Below are positions 3,394-50,226 of a DNA stretch of 64,000 nt, piece after piece. This DNA comes from Pseudomonadota bacterium (GTDB taxonomy: Bacteria > Myxococcota_A > UBA9160 > JADFDR01), in NCBI GenBank assembly GCA_003353845.1, contig PIVT01000010.1:4042-68041 (forward strand). Reading direction: 5' to 3'. The position numbers and the translations under genes are program-made. The notes below the pieces were generated by a model. The model was not told the DNA's origin. It made no database searches and was given only the letters and a program-made list of their open reading frames with translations. Positions within the stretch are counted from its first letter, which is position 1; each line of letters starts with the position of its first letter.

Positions 3394-4173
3394 TTACTTT
3401 GCGAATGGGTTGGGCGGAATGGTTGGCTCCAGCCATTTTTCGATGAACTCATCCTTGAGTCGCGACGGATGTCCCCGCCATACGATCTTGCCGTTCTTGA
3501 CCATGGCGGCAGCGGGTACAGTGTTCACCGCATACCGCTTTGACATGGCCCCTGCATTGTCTTTAGCCATGGGGAAGGTGACCTTAAGCTCCTTGCTGAT
3601 AAAGGCTTCGAGCTTTTCGTCCGTGTAGAGGCTGCTCGCTGCTGTCACGCCTATGAGATTGAGCCCCTTGCCCTGGTATTTCTGATAGCGTTCCTCAAGC
3701 TTGGTAACCTCGCTCTGGCTATAAGGATCGAAAGGCCTCCAGAAGAGGAGCACCGTGATGCGGCCATCGCTCATCTTCGCATTCCCTGCAAACCACTTCT
3801 CGGCGTTGATCTCACCGGCGTCTTGTCCGAGAAGATTGATCTCGCGCAATTCTCGCTGTGCGCCAAGGACCTCCTCAGCCATGGGGTAGGTTTCGATTAA
3901 TTTTTTGAGGTTTTTCTTCGCGTCCTCGATATCACCGGTAGCCGCAAGCGTTTGCGCCGAACTTAGCAGTCCCTGCGCTGCGCGTTTTTCGGCAGCTTTC
4001 TGTGCCTGGCTCTTGACGTTATGCTCGACGATTACAATTCGCTCTTCGAGGGCTTGAATCTTCTGATCCCGAATTGCGGCTTCTTCCTTGAGCGACTCGA
4101 TCTCGCTGTCCCCTTGGCAAGAGACGAGCACAAAAGACGCACAGAGTACGACCCAAACCAGATTACTCTTCAT
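3394..4173 (-). CDS. Lipoprotein with a coiled-coil region and a C-terminal thioredoxin-fold (TlpA/AhpC-TSA-like) domain lacking the CXXC active site
   Basis: The lipobox FVLVSC follows MKSNLVWVVLCAS (start moved to 4173). The C-terminal region ITVLLFWRPFDPYSQSEV...NLIGV...YAVNTVPAAAMV..GKIVW aligns to the TlpA/ResA pattern, but DPYS replaces CxxC. Confidence 0.55.
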   Translation of the reverse strand: MKSNLVWVVLCASFVLVSCQGDSEIESLKEEAAIRDQKIQALEERIVIVEHNVKSQAQKAAEKRAAQGLLSSAQTLAATGDIEDAKKNLKKLIETYPMAEEVLGAQRELREINLLGQDAGEINAEKWFAGNAKMSDGRITVLLFWRPFDPYSQSEVTKLEERYQKYQGKGLNLIGVTAASSLYTDEKLEAFISKELKVTFPMAKDNAGAMSKRYAVNTVPAAAMVKNGKIVWRGHPSRLKDEFIEKWLEPTIPPNPFAK

Positions 4174-4539
4174 GCAAACCCCCACTCTCAACGTTTTGAG
4201 CCTTGCCTTTTTCAGGTGCTCAGGCGTGTGTTGCATGGCAAGGGTAGCAACACCGCCAGTCTCTTGGGAATGCCCGGTTCCCCACCGGCCAAGGGCAGAT
4301 GTCCGGGTTTGTTACCAAACGGCAGTTCACCGGTGACTCCTTCAGTAGGACTCTGACTTTACTGGGTAAGTGGCACTGCTCATTTTACGAGTAAAAGTTA
4401 CTTTTTTTGCTGATTTAACCGCGGGTGCGACATTTAATCGCGTTTACGAACCGGCCGAATGCCGATAAGTTAATAGGACGTAAACCTGCGTTTTTGGGGG
4501 GCAATTCGCGTTGTCTACAGGTTGCAAAAAGGTTGTAAT

Positions 4540-5676
4540 ATGAGAGTACAGGCCCTGGTGGTCTCCATATTGCTGCTGGCCGGACTGTTCGCCAACTCGG
4601 CCCATGCGGCAGTCATTTTTTTGAATAATGGTGGGTCACTGATCACCCTCAATGACGCCACGTATTCGGCCGATGACGTATACGTTCGAGATGCCACCTG
4701 CGGCGGTGAAGTCGACTTTCCCTACAGGCCTTGCCTTTCCCCGGGTGTATCAACGAACATCAACGTCGCCACCGGTGCTGTAGTGAATAAGCTTTCCGTC
4801 TTGGATTCCTCGAGCATTAGCATGAGCGATGGAACGGTCAACGGTTTATTGGCGGCTGCTGATTTCGGCAGTATCAACATGAGTGGTGGTGTGGTGGATG
4901 AATTGCTTGTCGAGCACGACGCCACCCTTGATCTGAATGGTGGAACGGTCAACCAGGGGCTCGAGGCTTGGGACGACAGCATTATTACCATGAATGACGG
5001 TCTAGCGGATGGTCTTTTGCTCGTGAATGACTCCCGCTTCATCATGAACGCCGGAACCGTGAACTACTTGGATTCTTGGCATACCTCCATTGCCACGATC
5101 TACGGTGGTACGGTTGGCGGAGGAGGGGGTGGGGATGATCTGAACGCCTGGGACTCCTCTGTGATTAAGTTCCTCGGTGGCACTGTGACCGGTTATTTAA
5201 ATGCCGGTGATTCTTCCACAGTGACGGTTGTCGGTGGCACGGTGGACTTGGACTTCGACTCTTGGTTCGAATCCAATGCGGCCTTTACTGGCGGTACGGT
5301 GAACGGAGACCTGGATGCTTGGGAAACTTCCAATATGGTGTGGAATGGAGGGACGCTTGTCGGAGAGTTGTTCGCGGGTGACGCAGCCATCCTTACGGTA
5401 CGAGGATTTGACTTTAGGGTCGACGGGGTTCCGGTTCCCGATGACTACGAGCTTGTTGCAACCACGGGCGTGCTCACCGGTACGCTTGAATCGGGGGATC
5501 CCATTAACAATGTATTCTACCAGGGTGGGCATGACTATTATGGGGATGGTTCATGGTTTGTCACTGGAACCATCACCCTTGTTCCCGAGCCTGGCAAGGT
5601 ACTGTTGCAGGCAATCGCTTTGTTGAGCATAGGGCTTCTCTCCGGCCGCCGAAAAGCGGTCGGCCCGCTTGCCTAG
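4540..5676 (+). CDS. PEP-CTERM-anchored secreted repeat protein
   Basis: There is a signal peptide (MRVQALVVSILLLAGLFANSAHA), about 10 degenerate GGTV(N/D)-type repeats, and a C-terminal VPEPG + hydrophobic helix + GRRK sorting signal. The ATG at 4540 is preferred over the TTG at 4522. Confidence 0.75.
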   Translation: MRVQALVVSILLLAGLFANSAHAAVIFLNNGGSLITLNDATYSADDVYVRDATCGGEVDFPYRPCLSPGVSTNINVATGAVVNKLSVLDSSSISMSDGTVNGLLAAADFGSINMSGGVVDELLVEHDATLDLNGGTVNQGLEAWDDSIITMNDGLADGLLLVNDSRFIMNAGTVNYLDSWHTSIATIYGGTVGGGGGGDDLNAWDSSVIKFLGGTVTGYLNAGDSSTVTVVGGTVDLDFDSWFESNAAFTGGTVNGDLDAWETSNMVWNGGTLVGELFAGDAAILTVRGFDFRVDGVPVPDDYELVATTGVLTGTLESGDPINNVFYQGGHDYYGDGSWFVTGTITLVPEPGKVLLQAIALLSIGLLSGRRKAVGPLA

Positions 5677-5739: not shown

Positions 5740-7176
5740 ATGACTACGACTCCGCTCTTCGTCAAGCTTCGCGTGCTGATTCTTTTCCTCGCGTCGGGTC
5801 GCTTGGCCGTGATGCTCCTGCCCGTGGTCATCACGGTGATGGCCATCTATCTATTTATCCCGCAGGTGGGCCAGAGCGACCCTGCGTGGGTCGAGCGTTG
5901 GGTGGAGCAGAAAGGCCTCGTCGGGCAGCTCTTCCACCGGCTGTGGCTAACGAATCTCCGTCACTCCTGGCTGTTCTTTTACACTCCCTATGGGCTGCTG
6001 TTCGTAAATCTGGTCTTCTGCATGATCAAGCGCTTTCCCGTGTTAATCCGCCAAAGTCGCTTCCCAAAAGGAGTGCCACGGGTTCCCGCGACCTCGTTTA
6101 CCTTGGCGCAGGAGCCACCGGTTGTCGGGGATATCGTCCGCTTGCTCAGCCGCAAAGGCTATCGAAGCCTGGGCGGGGACAGTTGTCTCTATGGTTTGCG
6201 CGGACGGTTTTCCTTGGTGGGGAGTTGGATATTTCACGTGAGCTTCCTCATCTTGATGGTGAGTGGCTTCTTCCTCATGACCAGCCCCGAAAATTTTCGC
6301 GGCAAGCTTGCCTTGGGTGAGGGGGAGCCTTTTGATTTGCACGCCACCTCGTTTCTCAGCGCTGAAGTTCGCCCCTCCCCGGATCTGCCCCCGCTGCAAT
6401 TTTGGATTGAAACCATCGAGTTTGTCACCGATGACGTCGATTTGCATCGTTTCGAATCCACGCTGGTATCGCCGGAAGGCACGCGAGCCACGGTGGGAAT
6501 CAACCGACCTTATCGCTCACCTCCCTACCAGGTGCTGGCCGAAGGGTTTGGCTATATGCCGGGCTGGATCATCAAGGACATGCGAGGGCGGGTGGTGAGC
6601 AGTGGATGGGTGAAGCTGGTTCCATTCCCCTTGGAAGTTGAGGATCTCTTCTCCTTGGGGGTCAGAGTGGGGGGGCTGGTTCGCGTGACCTTCTATCCGG
6701 ATTATGAAGAGATCGATGGGGAAGAGCGCAATCGGAGCTACGAAGCCCTAAACCCCAAATTCAAAACCCGCATCGAGATCGATGGAATATCGGTTTTCGA
6801 GGGCTTGCTCGAACCGGGACAAGAAGTGTCCATTGATAATGGGCGACTGCATTTTTTCTTCCTGCCCGAGATTCGGAAGTACACCATCCTGGACATCATC
6901 GAAGAGGAGGATTACGGCACGCCCTTCGCCTGCTTCGGGGGCATGATTCTGGGTCTCGTATTCCGATATGCTAGAATTCGAAAGGAAATTTGGGTCCAGA
7001 TCTCTGAAAACTCAGTCCAAATTGCAGGGCGTAGCGAGATTCTCCCGGCCCTGTTTCAAGAGGAGTTGGAAGCCTTTGCCGGTGACGTCGCGAAGCTGAG
7101 TCCTCGCCTGGATAATGGGAAAAGCCTGGGAAGTGGGAAGAAAATCCAGAGTCGAAAGGAGGAAGGTGTCACATGA
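5740..7176 (+). CDS. resB: ResB/CcsB-like cytochrome c biogenesis protein (compact form, set 1)
   Basis: N-terminal TM helices with HSWLFFYTPYGLLFVNLVFCMIKRF, a large periplasmic middle, and INRPYRSPPYQVLAEGFGY plus a C-terminal TM helix match ResB architecture. Its stop overlaps the ccsA start (ATGA). Confidence 0.65.
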   Translation: MTTTPLFVKLRVLILFLASGRLAVMLLPVVITVMAIYLFIPQVGQSDPAWVERWVEQKGLVGQLFHRLWLTNLRHSWLFFYTPYGLLFVNLVFCMIKRFPVLIRQSRFPKGVPRVPATSFTLAQEPPVVGDIVRLLSRKGYRSLGGDSCLYGLRGRFSLVGSWIFHVSFLILMVSGFFLMTSPENFRGKLALGEGEPFDLHATSFLSAEVRPSPDLPPLQFWIETIEFVTDDVDLHRFESTLVSPEGTRATVGINRPYRSPPYQVLAEGFGYMPGWIIKDMRGRVVSSGWVKLVPFPLEVEDLFSLGVRVGGLVRVTFYPDYEEIDGEERNRSYEALNPKFKTRIEIDGISVFEGLLEPGQEVSIDNGRLHFFFLPEIRKYTILDIIEEEDYGTPFACFGGMILGLVFRYARIRKEIWVQISENSVQIAGRSEILPALFQEELEAFAGDVAKLSPRLDNGKSLGSGKKIQSRKEEGVT

Positions 7177-8048
7177 GCCCACTCGAATACACGACCTTTT
7201 GGATTACCGTTGGTGCTTACAGCTTGGGCGCAGCCTTGGCCTTGTGGGGGATTGTCTTCCGTCGGGATCAACCTCTCGCGGTCGCCACATTCGTGTGTGG
7301 CGCTGGATTGCTGTCCAATTGTATTGCCATCGGCGCTCGCATCGCCTTTACGGGGCATCTGCCAGTCGCCAGTCGCTACGAGAATGTCTTGTTCGGTACC
7401 GCAGTGGTCATGCTCTTTAGCGTGGCTAGCCTCGTGAAACGACCGAGCCTTCGACCCATCCTCGTGTTCACCGCTCCCTTTGCCCTCTTGATGTTGGGCT
7501 ACGCGCTCTTGAACCAGCCGCGCTACACCACCATGTCCTTGGTGCTGGACAACCTCTGGATGTTTGTCCACGTATTTTTTGCCTGGCTGAGCTATGGCGC
7601 TTATTCGCTCGCGGCCGCTGTGGGTGTTCTTTATCTACTTCGCGCGCGCAAGTCCTTGGAGGGGCTGCCAGAGGAACAGATACCGACCATTTTCGCCCGA
7701 CTGCCCTCCATGCTCGTGCTGGAAGACTTGATCTTTCGCTACATCATTTTCGGCTTCATCACCCACGTGGTGATGATTGTTTCGGGTGCCATCTGGGCGC
7801 GAGACCTGTGGGGGAAGTACTGGAATTGGGACCCCGTAGAGACTTGGAGCTTGCTCTCGGTCTTGCTCTATGGGCTCTGGATTCATCTTCGCGTGACCTT
7901 GAACTGGGGTGGGAAACGAATGGCCGGGTTGGCCGTCGCTGCCATTATTACTGTGATCTTTGCCTATTGGGGGACGAGCTTGCTCAGCAGTACCGACCAT
8001 TCCCTCGATGACCTGAAACTGCGAACTCCGATGACGGAGGTGCAATGA
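7173..8048 (+). CDS. ccsA: Cytochrome c assembly protein CcsA (System II heme lyase subunit, set 1)
   Basis: It has the WWD domain WGKYWNWDPVETWSLLSVLLYGLWIHLR with the following His, plus TGHLPVASRYENVLF. It is polytopic. Confidence 0.85.
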   Translation: MSPLEYTTFWITVGAYSLGAALALWGIVFRRDQPLAVATFVCGAGLLSNCIAIGARIAFTGHLPVASRYENVLFGTAVVMLFSVASLVKRPSLRPILVFTAPFALLMLGYALLNQPRYTTMSLVLDNLWMFVHVFFAWLSYGAYSLAAAVGVLYLLRARKSLEGLPEEQIPTIFARLPSMLVLEDLIFRYIIFGFITHVVMIVSGAIWARDLWGKYWNWDPVETWSLLSVLLYGLWIHLRVTLNWGGKRMAGLAVAAIITVIFAYWGTSLLSSTDHSLDDLKLRTPMTEVQ

Positions 8049-8434
8049 GCCCCGATGAGATCAAAGGCATTCTTGTAATGCTCAACAACTATTTCCACGA
8101 CTTGGCTACCGCGGTCTTCGCGGTGAGCGCCTTGGGTGCCTATTTCTTGCAACGCACGCTGGCCATGAAGTCCGCGCCGGAAGTGGTGCGACCCGTGGCG
8201 GAGGGCCTTCGCAAGGTGGGGATTGTTGCACTGGTCTGGACTTTGGCCGGTGGCTACTTGCGGGGCCGATTCTACCATCAGTACGAGTACATGGAAGCTG
8301 CAGGACGAGGGCAGGTGCCTGCCCTGATTGCGAAACACGTCCTATTGGTTGTCTTGGTGACCTTGGGAGCCATCGTCTTATACAAAGTGCGAAGGACAAG
8401 CTACACTGGCGAGTGTAAAGAGGTTCATTCATGA
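8045..8434 (+). CDS. Small 3-4 TM membrane protein of unknown function
   Basis: The 129-aa product has hydrophobic segments and conserved-looking His/Tyr residues (LNNYFHD, FYHQYEY). ATGA overlaps occur at both ends (8045-8048 and 8431-8434). Confidence 0.45.
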   Translation: MSPDEIKGILVMLNNYFHDLATAVFAVSALGAYFLQRTLAMKSAPEVVRPVAEGLRKVGIVALVWTLAGGYLRGRFYHQYEYMEAAGRGQVPALIAKHVLLVVLVTLGAIVLYKVRRTSYTGECKEVHS

Positions 8435-9930
8435 GTCGTACCATCTTATTCATAACACCCCCCTACCACTGTGGCGTGGTCGAAGTCGCCGGGCATTGGA
8501 TGCCCTTGGGGCTAGTCTATCTAGCGGCCGCCGCGCGCCGGGCCGGTTGGACCCCGATGATCTACGATGCCATGACCAAGCGGCATGAGCACGCCCAGAT
8601 CCGCGAGCGCATCAAAGAGCTGAACCCCGATTGCGTTGCGACAACAGCCATTACGCCGACTTTTCCGGATTGCTTGGAACTCCTGCGCAATGCCAAGGAC
8701 GTGCTTCCCGATGTGATTACCATCATGGGGGGTGTCCATCCCACCTTCATGTTCAAGGATATTTTGCAGGAATCACCCGACGTGGTGGATTACATCGTCC
8801 GCGGAGAGGGCGAGGAGACCCTGGAAGAACTGTTGCGCTGCATCGCCCAGGACAATGACCCCGAGGACGTGAGAGGGCTCAGCTTTCCACGTGAGAGCGA
8901 GATCTTGTACACCCCGAGCCGCAAGTTCGCCAAGAGCATCGAGATGGCCCACGACGAGTGGGACCTTCTCGACTGGAATGACTACACCTACTTTGTGATT
9001 CCGAAATCTCGCTTGGCCGTGGTATCCACCTCGCGCGGCTGCTCCTTTAGCTGCACCTTTTGCTCGCAGCAGAAGTTCTGGGAGCAGAGTTGGCGTTCTC
9101 GTGGCCCTGGACTCGCCGCCGACGAAATTCTGAACTTGCAGAAAAAGTACGGCGCCAACGTCTTCTTGATTACCGATGAATACCCCACCCAAGACCAGGA
9201 TCGCTGGGAAGCGTTCCTGGATCGACTCATCTTTGCCAAGTTCGATGGCTACCTGCTCATTGAGACGCGGGCGGCGGATATCGTGCGCGATGCCCACCTG
9301 ATGGCGAAATACCGAAAAGCCGGTGTCATTCATATCTATATCGGGCTGGAGGCGACGGATCAGCAAACCCTGGATACGATCAATAAGGAGCTGGTGCTGG
9401 ACGAATCCAAGGAGTGTCTGCGCTTGATTCGCGAGCACGGCATGGTGAGCGAGACAGCCTTTGTGCTCGGCTTTCCCTGGGAGACGCCGGAGACCATTGC
9501 GGCCACGCTAAAGCTTTCACAGGAATACGATCCCGACTTCGCGCACTACCTGGCCATTACCCCCTGGCCCTACGCCGACATCTACGAAGAGATGAGGCCG
9601 CATATCCGCGATTTTGACTATCGCAAGTACAACTTGATCGACCCTGTGATCAAGCCCGAGAACATGACCTTGGAAGAGGTGGACCGCGCCATTGTGAATT
9701 GCTACCGCGATTTCTACATGGGCAAGCTGCCGCAGATTGCCAAGGACCCGGACCCCTTCCGCAAGCATTACTTGCTGGTCTCCATGCGTCTCATTATGCG
9801 CAGCTCCTTCTTGAAGAAGAAGATGGGCAACCTGGGGACGATTCCAGCGGAGGTCGACCGTATGCTCAAGCGCTTGGGAATCAAAAGCGAAGAAGCCAAA
9901 AAGAAGGCCGTGTGCCCGATCAAACATTGA
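8431..9930 (+). CDS. B12-binding-domain radical SAM enzyme (class B, BchE-like family)
   Basis: The N-terminus is Rossmann-like (ILFITPPY...PLGLVYLAAAARRAG...IMGGVHPT, the cobalamin-binding domain pattern). It is followed by the radical SAM cluster motif CSFSCTFC. Confidence 0.85.
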   Translation: MSRTILFITPPYHCGVVEVAGHWMPLGLVYLAAAARRAGWTPMIYDAMTKRHEHAQIRERIKELNPDCVATTAITPTFPDCLELLRNAKDVLPDVITIMGGVHPTFMFKDILQESPDVVDYIVRGEGEETLEELLRCIAQDNDPEDVRGLSFPRESEILYTPSRKFAKSIEMAHDEWDLLDWNDYTYFVIPKSRLAVVSTSRGCSFSCTFCSQQKFWEQSWRSRGPGLAADEILNLQKKYGANVFLITDEYPTQDQDRWEAFLDRLIFAKFDGYLLIETRAADIVRDAHLMAKYRKAGVIHIYIGLEATDQQTLDTINKELVLDESKECLRLIREHGMVSETAFVLGFPWETPETIAATLKLSQEYDPDFAHYLAITPWPYADIYEEMRPHIRDFDYRKYNLIDPVIKPENMTLEEVDRAIVNCYRDFYMGKLPQIAKDPDPFRKHYLLVSMRLIMRSSFLKKKMGNLGTIPAEVDRMLKRLGIKSEEAKKKAVCPIKH

Positions 9931-19533: not shown

Positions 19534-20205
19534 CTATTCAGCAGTCGTTGATGTGGGGTACTGCGCCCTGATTTCAGATTGAATCAAGTCCTGTAATTGC
19601 TGGTAGCCAAAGTTTTGGAGGGGTTTCCCATTCGCAAAGAAACCCGGCGTTTTCCGGACATTCAGCACTTTGGCGTCGGCTAGATCCTGTTCGATGATTT
19701 TTGTAAAGGCAGGATCACTCATGTCGATTTTGATCTTCTGTAGATCGAGTCCCTCTACCCGAGATAAAAATGGCCAGATCTTCGTCAGGTCCGGCTTGTG
19801 GTGACTCGCCCAGTAGCGTTGTGACTTGTACATGGCGTCCAACGTCTCCCAATACTTCCCTTGCTTCTTGGAGGCCTCGAGAATTCGTACAAAATCATCG
19901 GCGCCCTTGTGGAAAGGGGCATATCGAATCACTAGCTTGATTTTACCGGGGTTGGCGTCCATGATTTGCTTAACAAAAGTTGAAAAGGCCGCGCAGGTTT
20001 CGCAGGCAGGGTCCATGAACTCGACGAGATAAACTTTCGCATCATCACTGCCCAGGGTTTGAGAATGATCTCTGATAAAGAGTGAAGCATTTTCCTGGGC
20101 CATGAAGCCAAGTTTCTCGGCCTGTTGTTTTTTGTAGTAGGAAGTGCCGAACACGAATGCAAAGAGCAGCGCAAGACATGAAATTCCAAAGATTGCATAT
20201 TTCAT
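19534..20205 (-). CDS. DsbA-family thiol:disulfide oxidoreductase (membrane-anchored)
   Basis: It has an N-terminal anchor and a thioredoxin fold with the CETC active site (FMDPACETCAAF). Its start overlaps the stop of the upstream DsbB-like gene. Confidence 0.8.
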   Translation of the reverse strand: MKYAIFGISCLALLFAFVFGTSYYKKQQAEKLGFMAQENASLFIRDHSQTLGSDDAKVYLVEFMDPACETCAAFSTFVKQIMDANPGKIKLVIRYAPFHKGADDFVRILEASKKQGKYWETLDAMYKSQRYWASHHKPDLTKIWPFLSRVEGLDLQKIKIDMSDPAFTKIIEQDLADAKVLNVRKTPGFFANGKPLQNFGYQQLQDLIQSEIRAQYPTSTTAE

Positions 20206-20705
20206 TTAGAAGTCCTTTGTTTCAAGAAAATGAGAAGGGCGATGATGGTGGAAAAGGACAGTAGAGAAAGCATTGGGATTGTCAAAAAACCAAACAGGTC
20301 GATGTACTCTTCGGTGCAGGAGACGCCTTGACTGCAAGGTTGGACGCTCTCTGGGACAATTCCAGCAATCATCAGGTTTTGAAACAATGCGACCAGCCAG
20401 CCGACTACCGCCAAGGGCAGGGCATATTTCACAACGTTCTTATCAAAGGGGAAGAGCCCGGCTGCCAGGATCAGGACCAGAGGGAACAGGCATATTCTCT
20501 GGTACCAACACAAGACACAGGGTGCAAACGCCATCACGTAGCTGAAAAACAAGCTTCCCATGGCTGAGGTACTGACCAGGAGCCAGCATGCAAAAAGGAT
20601 GTTCCAGTTTACATTCGTTCTTGGATCGGTCTGAGGCATGTCAAAGGCTCGCTGCAATTGAGTGGGGAGATTGAATAACTCAGGATTCCAAGAGTTGAAA
20701 CCCAT
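20202..20705 (-). CDS. DsbB/BdbC-family disulfide bond formation protein
   Basis: It has four TM helices, the first Cys pair CVLCWYQR in TM1, and a second pair in the PCSQGVSC loop. An alternative start lies at 20639. Confidence 0.75.
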   Translation of the reverse strand: MGFNSWNPELFNLPTQLQRAFDMPQTDPRTNVNWNILFACWLLVSTSAMGSLFFSYVMAFAPCVLCWYQRICLFPLVLILAAGLFPFDKNVVKYALPLAVVGWLVALFQNLMIAGIVPESVQPCSQGVSCTEEYIDLFGFLTIPMLSLLSFSTIIALLIFLKQRTSK

Positions 20706-20767
20706 GAGGGATGCTGTGATTCACTGAAGTGAAGTATATCACAGCTCCCTCGTTCTCTCCTTGACTC

Positions 20768-22360
20768 TTAGAGATCCTCGTAGGCCGCGAATCCACCATC
20801 GTGGCAATCTGTACAGATCGTGAAGTCGTCAAAGTCTTCGTCGTCGTCGAGGTGAACGAACACTTGCCCCTCTTTGAAGTTGGAGAGTGTCTCGATAACC
20901 TCTTCGCCCTGCGCAAGGATCGAGTGACACTTCGTGCAATCGGTGAAGATGGTGTCACCCTCGACAGACTCCATGACATCGTTGTGGCAGCGGAAGCAGC
21001 CGGGGGCATCGCGATGCCCGATGTTGTCCGGATGGGCAGACCAGTCGGCCTTCATTTCTGGGAAAATCGTCCGGCGATAGATTTCCTGGAGGGCCGTGAC
21101 AGCCCGCTGGAGTTCTTCCCTTTGCTCCGTGAGGACCTCAGGATACTCTTCATTGTAATACCCGCTCAGACCGTAGGAGATCTCCTTGAGCGCTTCAGCC
21201 TTGGTCTCGTATCGGCTATCGAGCAACTTGAGACCCTGATACTTGATATAAGGGAGCTCACGCGAGATCTTGCCAGCCAGAATGGCGTCATTGATGGAGT
21301 CCATGGGTTTGGCGAATTGGTGCGCGGGACGGCTGTGGCAATCCAGGCACTCGACTTGGTGGGTCTCTAGCGAAGTTCTCTCTTCATCGCTAAGAGGCTC
21401 GTCAGTATTATTATATTCAGTGATCTTGCCATCCGGAGCAGTGACACGCACATATGGGATTTCTTGACGCCTGTGGTCGCGTGCGATGAACTCGATTTTA
21501 TTCTGGCTCAACATATGGTAGTGGATCCCTGCACCGTCAATCAGGCCAGCGCCTTTTTCCTGGCCGCCGATCTTTAGTAGAAGCTTGATCTCGGAGGGGG
21601 TGCTTTCCTCGTCGGCATGGAAGTATTGGCGCGACAGCACTTTGTAATCGACGAATCGGTCCTTCCAGTGGCAGCTCTCACACATCTCCAATGAAGATCT
21701 CCGATTGTGAATGGGCGTGGGGATCGGCCGGCTAAAGTCTCCAGAGACGACACCGTAGACTTGTCGGAGTCCGTTTACCTTGGCCTCAATAAATCCCTTA
21801 GCGCCATGACCTACATGGCACTCGACACACGCGACGCGCGCATGTGGCGAATCTTCATAAACCATGGCCTCCGGGCTCATGACAAAATGACAGGTATTTG
21901 CACAGAATGCATTTGACTCCGTGTATTCCACCATGGCGATGGATCCGGCCCCGAGCGTCATCAAAGTCAGTGTTACACCGATAGTCGTGAGCAGTGCGAT
22001 CAAGACGATCTTGGGATGCGTAAAGAGGCCGAGATTGAGTTCCACATGCCATTGCCCGCTGATGGTTGGCGGTTTGCCGTGCGCGCGATGCTTTTTTTCG
22101 GCCACTCTGCCGAGCAGGGCGACGCCGATACCGGCCAGAGTAAGCGCTACTGGTGCGATGTACATCACACCGGCATACCCGCCCGCGTCATGGCTGATGA
22201 GATCGAGGATGATAAAGAAAAACAGACTGGAGAACGAACCAATGGCAAGGATGATCCCGGCAATACTGATCCCATTGAAGACCAGCCGGGGAGGGGGCGG
22301 CCGCTCGTCATCATCTAGGTGTGAATGGTCGTCGTGTTTTCTTCGGATACGGATGGGCAT
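20768..22360 (-). CDS. Inner-membrane heptaheme c-type cytochrome (three N-terminal TM helices; NapC/NirT/ImcH-like)
   Basis: It carries seven CXXCH motifs (CANTCH, CVECH, CESCH, CLDCH, CFRCH, CTKCH, CTDCH) after three hydrophobic helices. Confidence 0.85.
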   Translation of the reverse strand: MPIRIRRKHDDHSHLDDDERPPPPRLVFNGISIAGIILAIGSFSSLFFFIILDLISHDAGGYAGVMYIAPVALTLAGIGVALLGRVAEKKHRAHGKPPTISGQWHVELNLGLFTHPKIVLIALLTTIGVTLTLMTLGAGSIAMVEYTESNAFCANTCHFVMSPEAMVYEDSPHARVACVECHVGHGAKGFIEAKVNGLRQVYGVVSGDFSRPIPTPIHNRRSSLEMCESCHWKDRFVDYKVLSRQYFHADEESTPSEIKLLLKIGGQEKGAGLIDGAGIHYHMLSQNKIEFIARDHRRQEIPYVRVTAPDGKITEYNNTDEPLSDEERTSLETHQVECLDCHSRPAHQFAKPMDSINDAILAGKISRELPYIKYQGLKLLDSRYETKAEALKEISYGLSGYYNEEYPEVLTEQREELQRAVTALQEIYRRTIFPEMKADWSAHPDNIGHRDAPGCFRCHNDVMESVEGDTIFTDCTKCHSILAQGEEVIETLSNFKEGQVFVHLDDDEDFDDFTICTDCHDGGFAAYEDL

Positions 22361-22461
22361 TTGGCAAGTTCTCCAGGCAGCATAAATAGATGAACCGTTA
22401 CTTTAAGCGCCCTGATGCCGACACAATAGTGTGATAAGGTGCTCATTTTTCCAGGCAGACC

Positions 22462-23304
22462 CTACTCTGACGGGGCCTTCTTGCTCTCTTCTTTACTTGC
22501 TTTTCGTATTTCATCGCGCTTGGACTTCAGTTGGTCGAGTACCTCTTTTGTCTCAGCCTCGATGGCATCCAAGTCAAAGGTATGCCACGTAATGGAAAGA
22601 TGGCTGAGCTTCTGGTCGACTTCCTTGAAGAACGCCCGGCTTTCACTCGGGTCGATCCGATGGCTGAGATAGCGGTAGTAGTGGCTAATGGAGAGAAAGC
22701 GGTTGATGAGATGCTCAGCTTTTTCTGGATTCTCTGGATGGTTGTCGGTTTCCTCATTGTGACAACGCACGCAGGATTCTGCGACGGAGCTTACGTTGAG
22801 AATCTCAACGTTGATGGAACCGTGACAGGTAACGCAGGTAGGACCTTGATCCTCGATTTTTTCTGCGACCACGTGTTTGAAGTGCTCGCTTTCTTTGAAG
22901 CCCTCTAGAATGTCGTCGTGGCAGTCGCCGCATGTTTCGCTGACATTCGTGAAGTAGACGCCGCTGGCTTCATCTGTTGAAGCGACCCCCGCGCCATGGG
23001 AATCTTTCTTCTTGGAGGCTCGGGGATTTCCACCGTGGCAATCGTCACAGCTGACGCTTTCCAGGGAGTGAATGGATGTTTCCCATTGTTGGAAGTAGTC
23101 GTACAGCTTCTTGTTTCGCACGAGGAAGGTCTTGTTTCCGTGACATTCGATACAAGTGTTTTTTTCGGCTTCAGCTGCGGAGAGATCGATTTGAGGAATG
23201 AACCCGATGGTGAGTATGAGTACGAGGCGAAGAAGCGCAGGTAGGCCTTCGACTATTCGGATACGGATACGAGCAGGATTTTGGCTGTTGTATTGAAAGG
23301 GCAT
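22462..23304 (-). CDS. Pentaheme c-type cytochrome with a helical C-terminal region
   Basis: It carries five CXXCH motifs (CIECH, CDDCH, CGDCH, CVTCH, CVRCH) and a signal/anchor segment LPALLRLVLILTIGFIP. The start at 23304 is favoured by a GAGAGGA RBS; the ORF track gives 23397. Confidence 0.85.
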   Translation of the reverse strand: MPFQYNSQNPARIRIRIVEGLPALLRLVLILTIGFIPQIDLSAAEAEKNTCIECHGNKTFLVRNKKLYDYFQQWETSIHSLESVSCDDCHGGNPRASKKKDSHGAGVASTDEASGVYFTNVSETCGDCHDDILEGFKESEHFKHVVAEKIEDQGPTCVTCHGSINVEILNVSSVAESCVRCHNEETDNHPENPEKAEHLINRFLSISHYYRYLSHRIDPSESRAFFKEVDQKLSHLSITWHTFDLDAIEAETKEVLDQLKSKRDEIRKASKEESKKAPSE

Positions 23305-23801
23305 TTCCATTCCTCTCGGTTTCTTGAAGCTGTGAGAACGAAGATCGGCGCGAGGTTTGGAGCCATCGTGTGAAAGTCGGCGAACCCCACTCGTCACGCT
23401 CTATTTCTCCAGTCAGCCCGCCTTTCAGATTCAGGGGGAAGATCAAATTTGAGTCAGAGACCCTTAATTTTGAGGGCATTTCCCGCGCATTAAATCCCCA
23501 ATCAGACGGAAAAAATGTTAGCAAGAAGCATGGGTTGCAGCCACGCGGCTCGCTCCTGCAATGGGACTAATTTGTCGCACCCAGGCTTTTTAGCACGGAA
23601 TTCGGGTCTTCTAGCGTGCCGGTTTTAGGCGGTCGTGGATGATTCCCGGACCGTACACAATTTTGTCATCAAAGTGCAAAGCGAGACAAAATACAGGTGC
23701 CGGTTTGCAGGAGTGAAGAAAGTTTTACGGATGCGTTCGTCGTGAACCCTTGATCGGCGTTTGTTGTAGCGTTCGCTCGTGTCAGATGCTGATTCAGGTA
23801 C

Positions 23802-32656: not shown

Positions 32657-33982
32657 CTAAGCGAGACCCATACCCTTGAAGAAGTCTGTAACTTTCTCCT
32701 TTACTTCATCAACACTGGTATATCGCTTATCAAAGAGGTCGAGACCGATGTGCATGAAGGGCACGCCCAGCTCACGACAGGTCTCACGCATGATACCTAT
32801 GGTGGCAGAGCCGTCTTTGTGCCCCATATGCCCGGGCCAGATCACGCAATCGATCCGGTAATCCGTCACCATGCGCCGAATGTCCTCCGAGAAATTCTCG
32901 GCTGTACTTCGCGCCTGGCGAATCATGGGAGCATCGAGCAGGTTGCGCTTGGCGAGATCGTGGAAGATCGTTTCTTCTGAGGACGTGTCAATCAAGGTGT
33001 ATGGGAAATTCCCAAACATATCCATCACGATTACCGCGCCAAATTCCGTCTCAAGCCAGGGCATGAACTCGAACACCCAGCCGTAGGGCATGATGTCGAA
33101 CCAGAGCAAGCGAATCTTCTCTGTCCAGCCCTCGGCGGTGTTCGCGCCCTGACCGGCCTTCACTCGTGCTTCGCCGCATTTATAGAGTTGCTCGAACCAT
33201 GCGGTACATCGGGGATCGCCTGCTACGAAGCATTGGCTGATGGCGAAGGCCTGCGCTCCACCGATCTCCCATCCGTGCGGGCTGGGGACATTGCGCCGCA
33301 ACTCATTATAGTCCTGCCACTTGCTATAGGTCTTATTGGACTCGTCACACACCGTGACGAGTTTGTCCATGTCCAAGGTCTTGCCTGTGTGCTCCTCCAA
33401 AAATTTCGACATACGCCGCAACTCATCGGCGAAATACTCCACCGCGCGCTCATCGGATTTATAGGGAGGATCACAGCTATAGATCGGGACATTTTTCCAG
33501 GCTTCATTGTGCTGGAGCACCTGATGCAGCATGGGCGCGCCGTCACAGGGGTAGAGCAGGCCGAGAACGGCCGTAGGCATGGGCATGAGCCCGTTCTCGA
33601 TGTAGTACATGGGGAGTCGAATGGCGGTGCATAGATCCGTCCCCAATCCCATTTCTTCCGCACCCTCGATATCGTTGATCAAGTAGGGTGCTGTCGCTGC
33701 CAGGAATGGCGTTTCCATAACCATGAACCAGGGCAGGTCCATAGCCGTGAACAGCTCCGGCGCGTTGCAGAAATAGCCACCGATGAAGGGCTTATCGTTT
33801 TCGACGCAGTCGACAACGGTTTCCTTGGAATCCAGAAGGATTTCAAGCAGCTTTGCTTGAAGTGCGTTTTCCTCTCCAGGCATCACCTTCGCTGCGCTGA
33901 GCAGCAGCTTGAAATAGTCTCGTTCTTCTTTGTATCGCGATAAGGACTTGGCCTTGATCTCTTCAATATCCATCTTTGCCAT
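32657..33982 (-). CDS. HGD-D family protein (2-hydroxyacyl-CoA dehydratase beta / BcrB-BadE-like subunit)
   Basis: It has conserved Cys contexts (GGYFCNAPE, TDLCTAIR, YPCDGAP) and a length and layout typical of HGD-D components. The start MAKMDIEE lies 5 nt after the upstream stop, with a GGAGAAC RBS. Confidence 0.75.
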   Translation of the reverse strand: MAKMDIEEIKAKSLSRYKEERDYFKLLLSAAKVMPGEENALQAKLLEILLDSKETVVDCVENDKPFIGGYFCNAPELFTAMDLPWFMVMETPFLAATAPYLINDIEGAEEMGLGTDLCTAIRLPMYYIENGLMPMPTAVLGLLYPCDGAPMLHQVLQHNEAWKNVPIYSCDPPYKSDERAVEYFADELRRMSKFLEEHTGKTLDMDKLVTVCDESNKTYSKWQDYNELRRNVPSPHGWEIGGAQAFAISQCFVAGDPRCTAWFEQLYKCGEARVKAGQGANTAEGWTEKIRLLWFDIMPYGWVFEFMPWLETEFGAVIVMDMFGNFPYTLIDTSSEETIFHDLAKRNLLDAPMIRQARSTAENFSEDIRRMVTDYRIDCVIWPGHMGHKDGSATIGIMRETCRELGVPFMHIGLDLFDKRYTSVDEVKEKVTDFFKGMGLA

Positions 33983-33986
33983 CAGT

Positions 33987-35141
33987 TTAGTTCTCCGCCG
34001 CTTCGAGCTTTTCCAAGAATGCTTGTACACGTGTTCTGAGTTGCCCTTTGCCGCTCAGAATGTATTCCCGATCAAGTGCCATGAAGGGGATGCCATCGTC
34101 TTTGAGGTCGAGATTCGTCATGTAATGTTCGACGAGCCACTGATCACAGAAGAGCAAGCGCTCGCCAATGATGCCGTCCACATTGAATTCCTTGGCCATC
34201 TCCCGCGTGTAGTCGATGCGACGTTCTTGATCGCCATACATTCGGGGGCAGGAGGGTCGATCGTAGATGTAGTAGCTCGCCAGGGCCTGTACCGGGTCGA
34301 GATTGTCTTCGTCCACGGGCCGCCACATCAACCGGGTACCGAAACAAGTGGAATCGGTAACGACGAGTCCCCCTTGTTCCTCGATGATCTTGATGTACTC
34401 GGGATCGTCGAGTTCGCCGCCCACGATCATGATTCGGGCTCGGTACTTCCCCGTCCCTTCGTGGCCGCTAAGGTCTTCGAGTAGTTCTTCCAGTAAAGCC
34501 TTGTACTGAGGTCTTGGCATGGCCGTGCCAGCCACCATGACGGCGAGGGTTTCCGTGCCGGTAATGGGCGGATTATCAACCTTCCTCAGCTCATACAGTT
34601 GCTTTTGTAAGCTGCGAATCTCATTGTGGAGCTTGATGGCATCACGCAGATTCTTATCCGTAATCTCTACTTTGAAGTGCTCTTCAATTTGACCCTTTAA
34701 AACATTGATTTCATCGCGGTACCAATCGATCTGAGGTTGCTCGATCTTGCGAGGAAGGCTCATGACCTCGACGAAGGGTGTCTTCAGGTGACGAATCCAG
34801 TTGTCGTAGATGCGCCGGACGTGATCACAGCTGTTGATGCAAATCAGACCGTCGAGAAAATCATATTCGCCCTTGAGAGCTTGATTCATCGTATGCCGAG
34901 GGAAGCTGCAGTTGATGGCGCTGAAGCAGGAGTCCGAGAGTTCCGTCCCCGTGCTCCCCGTCCCGCGCATTCGGAAGGGCATGATCCCAGCTGCCGTGAA
35001 AATCTCTTCGGGTACCGTCGAGCAGAAAAAACCGGCGACCTTGCCACCCTGTTCCTTCCACGCTTCGATCTCGGGATTGAGAATACAGCTACTGGCCTGA
35101 ACAAACTTGTCAAATGCATCCGACTTGATCGACGTTTCCAA
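33987..35141 (-). CDS. HGD-D family protein (2-hydroxyacyl-CoA dehydratase alpha / BcrC-BadD-like subunit)
   Basis: It has GFFCSTVPEEIFTAAG, INCSFPRH and INSCDHVRR, plus a C-terminal FCDQW... pattern typical of HgdA/BcrC. It starts at TTG with an AAGGAG RBS. Confidence 0.8.
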   Translation of the reverse strand: METSIKSDAFDKFVQASSCILNPEIEAWKEQGGKVAGFFCSTVPEEIFTAAGIMPFRMRGTGSTGTELSDSCFSAINCSFPRHTMNQALKGEYDFLDGLICINSCDHVRRIYDNWIRHLKTPFVEVMSLPRKIEQPQIDWYRDEINVLKGQIEEHFKVEITDKNLRDAIKLHNEIRSLQKQLYELRKVDNPPITGTETLAVMVAGTAMPRPQYKALLEELLEDLSGHEGTGKYRARIMIVGGELDDPEYIKIIEEQGGLVVTDSTCFGTRLMWRPVDEDNLDPVQALASYYIYDRPSCPRMYGDQERRIDYTREMAKEFNVDGIIGERLLFCDQWLVEHYMTNLDLKDDGIPFMALDREYILSGKGQLRTRVQAFLEKLEAAEN

Positions 35142-35193
35142 TATACAGCTCCTTCATGCGGGAAGAGTGACGCCCGCGCATCGTTATTCCGTA

Positions 35194-35982
35194 TCAATCC
35201 GCCTTGTCTAAGCGCTCGGCGGCGAATAGCGCGGCGCCCAGAGCCCCCGCGATTTGTGGATCCTCTGGCAGTTTTTGCAGCGTGATATCAAGCTTGTCTG
35301 CCAGGGCTTTCGCCAAGCCGTAATTCTTGGAACAGCCACCCGTCAGTGCGACATCCTCAATGACACCGACCCGCCGCGACATGGACATCAATCGAGAGGC
35401 TACGGAGTTGTTGATGCCGGCAATGATGTTCTTGACGTCAATGCCCTCGTTCACCAGGGTGACCACCTCCGACTCTGCGAAGACGCTGCACTGATTACTG
35501 ATCGTGCAAGGATTGTCGCCCTGATTTTCCAAGGCCGAGATCCCTTCGAGTCCGCAGTCGAGCGCTCGTGCCATGGCTTCGAAGAATCGCCCCGTACCCG
35601 CCGCACATCGGTCATTCATGGAGAATTCGAGCACCGCCCCTTTGGGTGAAACGGAAATCACTTTGCAATCCTGGCCACCGATGTCGATGACAGTTCGCAG
35701 AGAAGGGGTCATCCAGTGCGCACCCTTTGCGTGACAGGTGATTTCGGACATGTTTTCCGATGCATAGGGGATCTGAAGTCGCCCATAGCCAGTTACGACA
35801 ACGTTTTCGAGATGGTCGACGGAAGGCAATCCCGCTTGTTCAAGCGCTTGCCCCATGGCCTCGTCCGCTGTGATCACCGGGTTGGTAGTGGATTTGATAA
35901 CCTGCTGGCCGACAATGTCGCCATCCTTGAGGATGACTGCCTTACCGGTGGCAGAGCCTATGTCGATTCCTCCAACAATCAT
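35194..35982 (-). CDS. HgdC/BcrAD-BadFG-type ATPase (activase, [4Fe-4S]-bridged archerase)
   Basis: It has the ASKHA motifs GIDIGSATGKAV and DIGGQDCKVI, the cluster-ligand contexts NDRCAAGTGRF and SNQCSVFAESE, and a size of 262 aa. Confidence 0.9.
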   Translation of the reverse strand: MIVGGIDIGSATGKAVILKDGDIVGQQVIKSTTNPVITADEAMGQALEQAGLPSVDHLENVVVTGYGRLQIPYASENMSEITCHAKGAHWMTPSLRTVIDIGGQDCKVISVSPKGAVLEFSMNDRCAAGTGRFFEAMARALDCGLEGISALENQGDNPCTISNQCSVFAESEVVTLVNEGIDVKNIIAGINNSVASRLMSMSRRVGVIEDVALTGGCSKNYGLAKALADKLDITLQKLPEDPQIAGALGAALFAAERLDKAD

Positions 35983-41393: not shown

Positions 41394-41423
41394 CTTGATC
41401 GGTACCCGGCCTCCATCGAGGGT

Positions 41424-42209
41424 TCAGGTGGCCGCTAAAAGCCGTTGGATCACTTCGTAGACTTTTGGATTTAACGCAAAGCCCATGTGCGAGGAGTCGA
41501 CTTCAATGTATTCAACGCAGGGCTGATTCTTGAGTCGGGCTGCGGAACTTGGGACGATGCCGTCTCTCTCGCTGTATATGACTTTGATGGGCACATCATT
41601 GGTTTTCAAGCGGCGCAGTTTTAGCCAAACCCCAAAGTCTTGTTCTTCCAGGGGGACGTCCGATCCTTTGACTCGATTTAGTAATTTGTAAAGCGATGTG
41701 CTGCGCGGGTCCCCGTAAGGTGCTCCCATAGTAATCACGTTGCGCGTCAGGTCAGGAACTTCTTGTGAGGCGTCCAAGGCATAAGCACCGCCCATGCTCC
41801 AGCCGACGAGGGAGACTTTTCTCTTTTCAGATTGATAAATTTCTTTGATGCGCTCGACGACAAGACCGCTCATTTTTTTACGGAAGGCGGCGGCCTCCTC
41901 GATTCGGTGGATGCTGTCTTCAGCAGTATCAAAGTTGACGCCTAGCTTCAAGGGGTGCGCTTGGTAACCGATCTTGTTGAGGTAATGTCGAATCAGACCC
42001 ATGGACCCGTCACCCGCGCCATAGCCGGGCAGCGTTAACACAGGGTGTCCATCACCGGGGTGGGCTTTCTTGATCAGTCGCGGCATGCCTACCAGCAGCC
42101 GCGCTACTTCTGCGCCTGAGCGCGGGAACTCACTTAGGGCAAGGGATAGACTCGGTGGTGTTGGGTGGTCGAGCACCAATTCGGATGAAGTCATCCGTTG
42201 ATTGTACAC
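41424..42209 (-). CDS. Alpha/beta-fold hydrolase
   Basis: It has the nucleophile elbow VSLVGWSMGGAYA and a C-terminal D...H pattern (SERDGIV, DSSHMGF). The start is uncertain. Confidence 0.65.
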   Translation of the reverse strand: MYNQRMTSSELVLDHPTPPSLSLALSEFPRSGAEVARLLVGMPRLIKKAHPGDGHPVLTLPGYGAGDGSMGLIRHYLNKIGYQAHPLKLGVNFDTAEDSIHRIEEAAAFRKKMSGLVVERIKEIYQSEKRKVSLVGWSMGGAYALDASQEVPDLTRNVITMGAPYGDPRSTSLYKLLNRVKGSDVPLEEQDFGVWLKLRRLKTNDVPIKVIYSERDGIVPSSAARLKNQPCVEYIEVDSSHMGFALNPKVYEVIQRLLAAT

Positions 42210-42218
42210 CCTGAGAGT

Positions 42219-48777: not shown

Positions 48778-48809
48778 ATTGGTTTGAGAATAAATGGAAG
48801 GAGTAGAAC

Positions 48810-49232: not shown

Positions 49233-49251
49233 GGAAGCGGAAGGGGAAAAC

Positions 49252-50154: not shown

Positions 50155-50226
50155 TTTTCCGTCAGTGAAGCAGGTTTTATTTTTGTGATGAACTCAGATC
50201 AGCCAATGGTTTCGTAGGAGACGTCG

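Follow-up and report, generated by a model that had tools for sequence, protein, structure and literature searches.

We describe a four-gene operon at positions 5740-9930 of the window, a 64-kb stretch of contig PIVT01000010.1 from a bacterium placed in the lineage Myxococcota_A. Its genes encode the ResB- and CcsA-type subunits of a cytochrome c synthase (ResB1 and CcsA1), a small three-helix membrane protein and a B12-binding radical S-adenosylmethionine (SAM) enzyme that is related to BchE. The module combines a System II cytochrome c synthase with two accessory components not described before, and its recurrence in about a dozen phyla points to an undescribed step in cytochrome maturation. 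The explanation that we favour, as a tentative one, is that the operon encodes a dedicated System II synthase and two accessory factors, of which the enzyme would tailor haem in the cytoplasm.

Results

Organization of the operon

The four genes lie on the forward strand and form one operon. All three of their junctions are ATGA stop/start overlaps (Table 1), as an earlier note on this DNA had described and as we read directly in the sequence, and Shine-Dalgarno-like purine runs stand within the preceding gene, 4-10 bases 5' of each internal start. A relative of the cluster on contig PJEL010016560.1 (L162) has the same five genes, the gene upstream of ResB1 included, with identical 4-base overlaps, and its small protein is 89% identical to that of the window. 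The small-protein and enzyme open reading frames (ORFs) overlap or abut in many further loci. One correction is needed here: the tightest partner of the enzyme is the small protein, and not ResB/CcsA.

The upstream gene encodes a secreted repeat protein with a PEP-CTERM sorting tail, for which Pfam and NCBIfam scans gave no match. Because it ends only 63 bases before the start of ResB1, because no promoter-like or terminator-like site was seen on the forward strand between this gene and position 5740, and because L162 keeps both the gene and its spacer, it may be the first gene of what would then be a five-gene operon.

The ResB1/CcsA1 synthase and a second pair

The WWD motif of CcsA1, WGKYWNWDPVETW (residues 213-225), aligns with the WWD of the solved CcsBA structure 7S9Y, and its residues H133, H238 and H276 align with the histidines that we take to be P-His1, TM-His2 and P-His2 of that structure. 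The intact WWD and flanking histidine noticed in the earlier note are thus borne out by alignment. Residues W129, H133, W217, W219, E223 and H238 are invariant in 20 CcsA1 relatives. CcsA1 is far above the gathering score of its Pfam family (Table 1) and reaches 154.9 bits on the NCBIfam CcsB equivalog TIGR03144, under the cut-off of 187.6.

ResB1 fits the ResB architecture, in which N-terminal transmembrane (TM) helices are followed by a large domain in the periplasm and a helix at the C-terminus. Compared with the PDB sequences it gave no match, and the assignment of H166 (in FHVSF) as the presumed TM-His1 is based on its pattern and on the family alignment, not on a direct PDB alignment. 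The pattern resembles LLLHASFIVI in 7S9Y and FVLVHFSIVI in ResB2. An equivalent histidine is present in every CcsA-adjacent ResB of the comparison set and is replaced only in separate ResB-like paralogues that adjoin FtrD-like genes. Another candidate for TM-His1, H75 (in RHSWLF), was dropped, the family alignment showing that H166 is the conserved residue. ResB1 and CcsA1 therefore appear to keep all four haem-ligand histidines as well as the WWD motif, and the synthase looks functional.

A second pair, ResB2 and CcsA2, begins 6 kb past the four-gene cluster, where the earlier note had also seen it. CcsA1 and CcsA2 are only 27% identical, and CcsA1 falls below the TIGR03144 cut-off that CcsA2 nearly reaches (185.9 bits), so the window has a divergent extra synthase beside a conventional one. 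Since this more conventional pair is present, the first pair looks specialised, and the description of the cluster as a specialised module, made before our analysis, is a fair one.

Conservation of the gene linkage

One scan of species-representative genomes recovered 80 loci with members of the enzyme family, at 51-60% identity. The carriers span about 12 phylum-level lineages: Nitrospirota/Thermodesulfovibrionia, Thermodesulfobacteriota, Geobacter/Geotalea, Ignavibacteria, Bacteroidota, Zixibacteria, Acidobacteriota, Lentisphaerota, Marinimicrobia, Elusimicrobia, Deferribacteres and Anaeromyxobacter (Myxococcota). Hidden Markov models (HMMs) built from the loci were applied around 56 unfused family members to count neighbours. 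A CcsA- or ResB-like gene lies within 8 kb of the enzyme in 43 of the 56 (77%), and the small protein is found within the same distance in 40 (71%), in 30 of these within 300 bp. Cytochromes with at least four CXXCH motifs are less frequent neighbours (22/56 within 8 kb). Of the 22 enzyme genes that are flanked by 5 kb or more on each side, 17 are linked to CcsA/ResB. A rough inference puts chance linkage at about 1% for a genome with few CcsA genes. CcsA/ResB-linked members occur in all deep clades of the enzyme family tree.

The linkage survives rearrangement. The enzyme stands ahead of ResB-CcsA in four loci (L020, L047, L053 and L060), is convergent with the small gene in two (L165/L166), and in L167 lies 6 kb away yet inside the cluster. 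Several loci, like the window, have the ResB/CcsA pair and no multihaem gene nearby; because the linkage holds there as well, the enzyme is tied to ResB/CcsA and not only to cytochromes. In one metagenome contig (L168), the enzyme is called as two pieces (297 and 243 residues) with the remaining cluster intact; the split may reflect a frameshift, pseudogene formation or faulty assembly.

These counts bear on the simplest alternative, namely that the radical SAM gene stands 3' of ResB/CcsA by accident and has no functional link to it. The window alone would be compatible with an accident, and some CcsA1-type clusters lack the enzyme, but a linkage of 77% over about 12 phylum-level lineages compares with the roughly inferred 1%, it is kept through rearrangements, and the genes are translationally coupled both in the window and in L162. 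We consider this alternative very improbable. Chance adjacency, which the earlier note had named as what a lack of synteny elsewhere would indicate, is not supported, the radical SAM gene being syntenic with ResB/CcsA over all these lineages.

The radical SAM enzyme and its relation to BchE

The enzyme consists of an N-terminal B12-binding domain (PF02310) followed by a radical SAM core (PF04055), with a cluster motif C204-x3-C208-x2-C211 whose three cysteines are invariant in 23 sequences. It has no signal peptide and no hydrophobic segment was found in it; it is for this reason predicted to be cytoplasmic.

On TIGR02026, the BchE equivalog, the enzyme scores 426.1 bits against a cut-off of 481.35. 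The next NCBIfam families are far behind (HpnR 153, ApyD 115 and HpnJ 97 bits), and the HemN model reaches only E = 0.0025 against the window enzyme. Five other family members give a similar profile, with 408-447 bits on TIGR02026 and about 150 for the next family. A search of 5.8 billion proteins, in which 8000 candidates were scored, gave 1597 relatives at E <= 1e-20. Among the 120 relatives listed nearly all are 55-60% identical to the enzyme and many are about 645 residues long with a C-terminal Polyketide_cyc2/SRPBCC domain; database annotations of the relatives read 'BchE'.

For comparison, authentic bchE was recovered from plasmid photosynthesis gene clusters, together with one cyanobacterial copy. 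The Roseinatronobacter gene sits among bchF, ppsR, bchJ and chlG, and that of Thiodictyon between puhE and hemN. The window enzyme is 36-38% identical to authentic BchE over about 490 residues and 24.5% identical to HpnR, while BchE of three phyla are 56-59% identical among themselves. In a neighbour-joining tree with 100 bootstraps, the enzyme family, the BchE group and their union, set against HpnR and a second B12-radical SAM type, are each monophyletic in 100/100 replicates, the BchE side of both tree and identity comparison consisting of three sequences. The window ORFs that were scanned include no bch, chl or puf gene, the families conserved over the 81 loci include none either, and the carriers of the enzyme family belong to non-phototrophic lineages. 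Based on the score below the cut-off, the position outside the BchE clade, the lack of bch genes nearby and the non-phototrophic hosts, we assign the enzyme to a sister family of BchE and not to BchE itself.

BchE is the anaerobic oxidative cyclase of Mg-protoporphyrin IX monomethyl ester. The enzyme shares its B12-binding and radical SAM architecture and has a similar N-terminal motif, which reads TPPYHCGVVEVAGHW in the window and PNYHSGGAEIAGNW in BchE. It is about 55-65 residues shorter than proteobacterial BchE (553 and 562 residues; the cyanobacterial BchE has 681), and it differs in its setting, with haem-handling genes beside it in place of bch genes. The earlier note had noticed a cobalamin-binding-type N-terminus, a radical SAM motif and a likeness to BchE, all of which the domain matches, the three cysteines and the TIGR02026 score confirm. 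It would have counted it against its reading if the closest characterised relatives acted on substrates other than tetrapyrroles; the closest one, BchE, acts on a tetrapyrrole, and the enzyme family and BchE are sister clades.

In anaerobes, HemN, AhbC/AhbD, NirJ and ChuW/HutW, radical SAM enzymes whose substrate is haem or a haem precursor, perform radical chemistry on tetrapyrrole side chains. To our knowledge none of them is a B12-dependent class B enzyme or is coupled to a cytochrome c synthase. A rival explanation, which we regard as unlikely, is that the enzyme would catalyse an oxygen-independent step of late haem synthesis, such as the oxidative decarboxylation of propionate side chains on coproporphyrinogen or coprohaem. 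This decarboxylation, like the reaction of BchE, begins with hydrogen abstraction from the propionate beta-carbon. Ordinary haem b would in this case form at the membrane and pass directly to the dedicated synthase during the production of many-haem cytochromes. For radical SAM enzymes acting on tetrapyrrole propionates, HemN and AhbD offer a precedent. A supply role would also fit the kinship with BchE and the linkage to haem handlers, the carriers are anaerobes rich in multihaem cytochromes, and a true bchE adjoins hemN in Thiodictyon. However, HemN and AhbD do this chemistry without B12, no haem-biosynthesis enzyme is among the families present in at least 7 of the 81 loci, and synthase clusters of the same type exist without the enzyme.

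The small membrane protein

An AlphaFold2 model of the small protein shows three long helices (predicted local distance difference test score 86.4). In 41 homologues the residues N15, Y16, H18 and D19 (NNYxHD, at the start of helix 1) are invariant, as are G70, R73, E81 and K97-H98. The protein has a weak, sub-threshold similarity to CopD/DUF2214: the window protein scores 16.4 bits on CopD against a gathering score of 32.1, and weak matches over helices 2-3 were found for 15 of the 41 homologues (best E = 1.3e-5). Compared with CopD-like proteins it thus has a faint likeness in helices 2-3 and only three helices in all. It matched no solved structure and no plasmid sequence, and a profile search of 1.84 billion proteins gave 301 small-protein clusters only, all of one family. 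By sequence it appears to be a small separate family; neither Pfam nor NCBIfam has a curated family for it, nor for the enzyme clade.

The profile search also gave rare fusions (P0251, P0260, P0265 and P0334). In three fusion proteins, helix 3 is followed by a fourth, signal-peptide-like helix and then by a periplasmic domain, while one carries a signal peptide and a domain ahead of helix 1; the periplasmic domains are of the SurA/peptidyl-prolyl isomerase (PPIase), PKD/NHL and PsbP/DcrB-like types. P0251 has a lipobox-like AAFGC past the extra helix, and some of the fusions may be gene-calling read-throughs. The kinds of fusion partner occur as separate genes (the PPIase as UetB, the NHL proteins as UetH and UetI) in clusters of the uet type, to which we return below. 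Because the natural fusions carry periplasmic domains, the N-terminus of the small protein is predicted to lie outside and its C-terminus inside. The invariant polar residues are then predicted to face the periplasm, as does the CcsA WWD site, and the protein probably acts together with CcsA/ResB, either on haem or on the client, rather than presenting substrate to the cytoplasmic enzyme.

The coupling of the small ORF to the enzyme raises another alternative, in which the enzyme would modify a protein after translation, its target being the small protein, ResB/CcsA or an apocytochrome before export. The model would be the class B methylases of methyl-coenzyme M reductase and of ribosomal peptides. 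Precursor and maturase are usually encoded in just this way, by a small ORF in translational coupling with a B12-radical SAM gene, the small protein is the closest partner of the enzyme, and ApyD, rSAM_ocin_1 (methylases of ribosomally synthesised and post-translationally modified peptides) and the methyl-coenzyme M reductase glutamine methyltransferase are among the weaker matches. Yet the small protein is no leader/core peptide but a conserved membrane protein of three helices, its invariant residues are predicted to face the periplasm, apocytochromes exit unfolded via Sec, and in the four loci where the enzyme is directly beside ResB-CcsA the small protein is not immediately upstream. Among the alternatives that grant these genes a functional link, we think protein modification the least probable.

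Electron-transfer setting and candidate clients

Clustering of all proteins of the loci revealed a recurrent layout, seen in the Ignavibacteria/Bacteroidota/Zixibacteria/Marinimicrobia group, with the order tetra- or pentahaem cytochrome, NHL propeller, cytochrome of about 630 residues, ResB, CcsA, second NHL propeller, small protein, enzyme. The 630-residue cytochrome has 10 CXXCH motifs and one CX3-8CH (Paired_CXXCH_1), and elsewhere giants with 13-37 CXXCH stand in its place. Around closer small-protein relatives (58-62% identity) the order is NHL, cytochrome, ResB, CcsA, small protein, enzyme, and NHL genes and an undecahaem-type cytochrome adjoin ccsAB in L028, L033, L040, L052, L065, L070-L072, L079 and L164-L167. 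In most genomes, the usual setting of the module is thus an extracellular electron transfer cluster that encodes NHL propellers and cytochromes of 10 to 37 haems, of which the window cluster is a stripped-down version.

The undecahaem-type cytochromes contain ten CXXCH motifs, one conserved site of variable spacing, E...C(X4-8)CHG (e.g. CYDGTNTGCH), and a conserved C-terminal cysteine pair. The extra cysteines of this family look like one CXnCH site plus that pair. A cytochrome motif specific to the enzyme was considered and dropped, non-standard CX3-8CH motifs being found near CcsA1-type synthases with and without the enzyme. Because they are common in both cases, non-standard CXnCH motifs do not explain the enzyme. 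The earlier note had linked a dedicated synthase to non-standard haem motifs; these motifs do accompany the dedicated synthase, but independently of the presence of the enzyme. Judged by its sequence relatives, the short CcsA type marks synthases dedicated to large cytochromes.

Variant neighbourhoods

Variants of the cluster in Geobacter/Geotalea and Nitrospirota add genes for FtsX-type ABC transporters, an FtrD-like membrane protein, a histidine-less ResB-like protein, a thioredoxin-fold protein, a separate SRPBCC protein and a second, unrelated B12-radical SAM enzyme. The set of two FtsX genes, an ABC gene, an FtrD-like gene (PF10080) and the histidine-less ResB-like gene is linked to the enzyme in Geobacter/Geotalea, in Nitrospirota and in one Acidobacteriota locus, and presumably resembles the P19/Ftr1-associated iron-uptake genes cj1660-cj1665 of Campylobacter. 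The second B12-binding radical SAM gene (about 440-470 residues) often accompanies the BchE-like enzyme and sometimes stands directly 5' of ResB-CcsA; its best NCBIfam matches are about 75 bits, with no close characterised relative. No domains were found in the unnamed neighbours or in the apparent N-terminal extension of L057.

Enzymes fused to SRPBCC/Polyketide_cyc2 form one derived Nitrospirota subclade (L002-L024), mostly stand-alone. Their neighbours are uninformative (GlmS, GlmU, chorismate synthase, DAHP synthase, a TonB receptor, LarC and a LysR regulator). In other Nitrospirota (L063, L078) the SRPBCC protein has a gene of its own next to that of the enzyme. Compared with the PDB sequences, the SRPBCC protein gave no match; the ligand of this domain might point to the substrate of the enzyme.

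The SRPBCC fold binds lipids and quinones, and this brings in a further alternative that we think quite unlikely. Here the substrate would be hydrophobic and not a tetrapyrrole (menaquinone, a membrane lipid or a hopanoid), the enzyme would adapt the membrane or the quinone pool to extracellular electron transfer, and its adjacency to ResB/CcsA would reflect co-regulation inside electron-transfer islands. Besides the SRPBCC domain fused to or beside the enzyme in Nitrospirota, the next-best matches of the enzyme include HpnR, a hopanoid methylase, and a lipid B12-radical SAM family, it is usually encoded in an electron-transfer cluster, together with NHL propellers and multihaem cytochromes, and the electron-transfer locus of Listeria, with its dedicated quinone synthesis genes, offers a precedent. 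These lipid-acting families score about 150 bits, as opposed to more than 400 for BchE, the ResB/CcsA linkage persists where no cytochrome gene is nearby, and the fused stand-alone form is confined to the one derived subclade.

Other features of the window

Divergent from the four-gene cluster are two genes, one for a ResB-like protein that lacks the TM histidine and scores 112 bits on an HMM of the ResB-like genes of the loci, the other for a thioredoxin-fold protein that is probably redox-inactive by its sequence. The ResB-like gene is overlapped at its end by 44 bases by a gene for a protein with a spermidine-synthase-like domain. Directly after ResB2/CcsA2 come DsbA-like and DsbB-like genes and two cytochromes (20768-22360 and 22462-23397), one membrane-anchored and NapC/NrfH-like (6 CXXCH and 1 CX3CH), the other pentahaem. 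These are the nearest candidate clients for either synthase; they gave no tblastn match to the undecahaem family of the other loci and are unrelated to it.

Further genes, at 32657-35982 (-), 39585-43883 (-) and 46711-52194 (+), suggest degradation of cyclic or aromatic acids. They include a pair resembling benzoyl-CoA reductase/2-hydroxyacyl-CoA dehydratase with an activase, two ketosteroid-dehydrogenase-like flavoproteins and two enoate-reductase-like fusion proteins, and this gene content suggests that the source of the window is an anaerobe degrading such acids. No tRNA gene was found in the 64-kb window.

Table 1 Features of the window and of related loci (loci are given as locus:coordinates; aa, amino acids).
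Feature	Position	Strand	Remarks
Protein with about nine TM segments and spermidine-synthase-like domain, 700 aa	413-2515	-	'fused MFS/spermidine synthase' 53.6 bits
ResB-like protein, 284 aa	2472-3326	-	two TM helices around ResB-type periplasmic domain
Thioredoxin-fold protein	3394-4236	-	weak ResA/StoA similarity; CXXC site reads RPFDPYS
Secreted repeat protein	4522-5676	+	PEP-CTERM sorting tail (VPEPGK...RRK), from translation
ResB1, ResB/CcsB-type System II subunit, 478 aa	5740-7176	+	Pfam ResB (PF05140) 94.7 bits, E = 7.7e-27; model positions 2-485 (full model)
ATGA overlap ResB1/CcsA1	7173-7176	+	AAGGAGG at 7156-7162
CcsA1, short CcsA/ResC-type haem-handling subunit, 291 aa	7173-8048	+	Cytochrom_C_asm (PF01578) 122 bits, E = 3.6e-35; gathering score 29.9
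ATGA overlap CcsA1/small protein	8045-8048	+	GGAGG at 8036-8040
Small three-helix membrane protein, 129 aa	8045-8434	+	no Pfam or NCBIfam family
ATGA overlap small protein/radical SAM enzyme	8431-8434	+	AAAGAGG at 8417-8423
Class B radical SAM enzyme, 499 aa	8431-9930	+	B12-binding 101.7 bits (3.1e-29); Radical_SAM 77.3 bits (2.1e-21)
ResB2, 617 aa	15957-17810	+	Pfam ResB 93.6 bits
CcsA2, 550 aa	17850-19502	+	Cytochrom_C_asm 131 bits; TIGR03144 185.9 bits, cut-off 187.6
DsbA-like, DsbB-like, two cytochromes	19534-23397	-	directly after ResB2/CcsA2
Undecahaem-type cytochromes	L028:4308-6296, L033:4223-6106, L040:3623-5506, L052:186-2096, L070:4149-6080, L071:1036-3036
Second B12-radical SAM gene (examples)	L016:1114-2460, L025:1722-3041, L046:2422-3792, L047:5968-7362, L078:8214-9551
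FtsX/FtrD-type loci	L013, L019, L026, L032, L034, L035, L042, L046 (4197-9850), L054, L062, L067, L076
SRPBCC-fused enzyme (example)	L004:5469-7400
Enzyme called in two pieces	L168:2338-3905		metagenome contig

Discussion

In the mechanism that we propose, cytoplasmic haem would enter ResB1/CcsA1 via the site formed by TM-His1 (H166) and TM-His2 (H238), would be shown at the periplasmic WWD/P-His site (H133, H276) and would there be joined to the CXXCH-type motifs of secreted apocytochromes. The radical SAM enzyme would work in the cytoplasm and, because it is a sister of BchE and is tied in the genomes to haem handlers, most likely on the tetrapyrrole cargo (haem or an immediate precursor) before export. 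A cytoplasmic small molecule would be a likelier substrate than a client protein, since Sec exports apocytochromes in unfolded form and the enzyme depends on SAM and a reductant. The likeliest chemistry would be tailoring of a side chain, either by BchE-type radical oxidation at the propionate beta-carbon or by B12-dependent C-methylation. The periplasmic His/Asp/Arg/Glu/Lys/His cluster of the three-helix protein would probably handle cargo or client, beside CcsA/ResB. The more specific proposal that the BchE-sister enzyme makes an altered haem (with a propionate oxidised or cyclised, or C-methylated), which the dedicated ResB/CcsA, with help from the three-helix protein, attaches to extracellular or periplasmic multihaem cytochromes, is possible but doubtful.

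Several points weigh against haem tailoring by the enzyme. The sister relation to BchE is a lead on the substrate and not a proof, and class B enzymes readily change substrate class. BchE-type cyclisation needs a propionate methyl ester, and no BchM-like methyltransferase is conserved in the clusters. The site of the small protein that is predicted to face the periplasm is unlikely to present a substrate to a cytoplasmic enzyme. The operon of the window has no client cytochrome or NHL gene in cis, its upstream gene being that of the PEP-CTERM protein, and no haem-motif feature tells clients associated with the enzyme from others. The SRPBCC-fused subclade of Nitrospirota stands mostly alone among housekeeping genes. 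Finally, a reverse test was made by searching metagenomes from CcsA1; the matches listed were mostly ordinary CcsA, with about 10 informative loci. Among these matches, the closest CcsA1 relatives (L084-L086) adjoin 15- to 17-haem cytochromes without the enzyme, while the relatives L092, L110 and L129 have it. Because the closest relatives include enzyme-free clusters, the enzyme and the small protein are accessory in a subset of these synthases and not an obligatory part.

With the known System II synthases (CcsBA of Helicobacter hepaticus, 7S9Y/7S9Z; ResBC of Bacillus; CcsB/CcsA of plastids and Bordetella) the window pair shares the ResB and CcsA families, the WWD motif and the two periplasmic and two transmembrane haem histidines. 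It differs from them in the short CcsA1, below the NCBIfam equivalog cut-off, and in the two extra genes of the operon. We know of no described System II that carries a three-helix membrane protein and a B12-radical SAM enzyme. Wolinella succinogenes reportedly has dedicated CcsA isoforms, NrfI for CXXCK and CcsA1 for the CX15CH haem of MccA. As in that organism, an extra synthase stands here beside a housekeeping one, and the client cytochromes of the relatives often have non-standard CX3-8CH motifs; unlike in Wolinella, these motifs occur with or without the enzyme, and no radical SAM partner of the Wolinella isoforms is known to us.

The closest parallel in cluster style is the uet cluster of 'Candidatus Tenderia electrophaga', where the NHL proteins UetH/UetI and the undecahaem UetJ are followed by ccsAB-nrfG, and whose authors propose that the dedicated CcsAB matures the cytochromes of that cluster (bioRxiv 10.1101/2022.05.06.490989). 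That paper names no radical SAM gene, the word 'radical' having 0 occurrences in it (bioRxiv 10.1101/2022.05.06.490989). Relatives of the window cluster share the uet style, with small cytochrome, NHL, undecahaem-type cytochrome, ResB, CcsA and NHL, as opposed to the window itself, which lacks NHL and cytochrome genes in cis. In the full-text literature (subscription-only papers not covered) we found no report that links radical SAM enzymes to CcsBA, to ResB or to the biogenesis of cytochrome c, which agrees with the statement in the earlier note that no characterised example was known.

System II maturation is held to be a job for two proteins with thiol-redox helpers, and haem c to be unmodified haem b with two thioethers. 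If the enzyme does alter haem, the operon would represent a new step of cofactor tailoring in the making of c-type cytochromes, shared by about a dozen anaerobic phyla. The hypothesis is open to direct experiment, since the module is present in the cultured strains Geotalea toluenoxydans JCM 15764 (L035) and Geotalea sp. SG265 (L046). The conservation of the enzyme and the small protein within dedicated synthase operons of metal-reducing and electroactive bacteria suggests either a tailored haem or an unrecognised need that arises when very large multihaem cytochromes are built in the absence of oxygen. Either would bear on extracellular electron transfer, on the heterologous production of multihaem cytochromes and on the abundant 'BchE' annotations in non-phototrophs.

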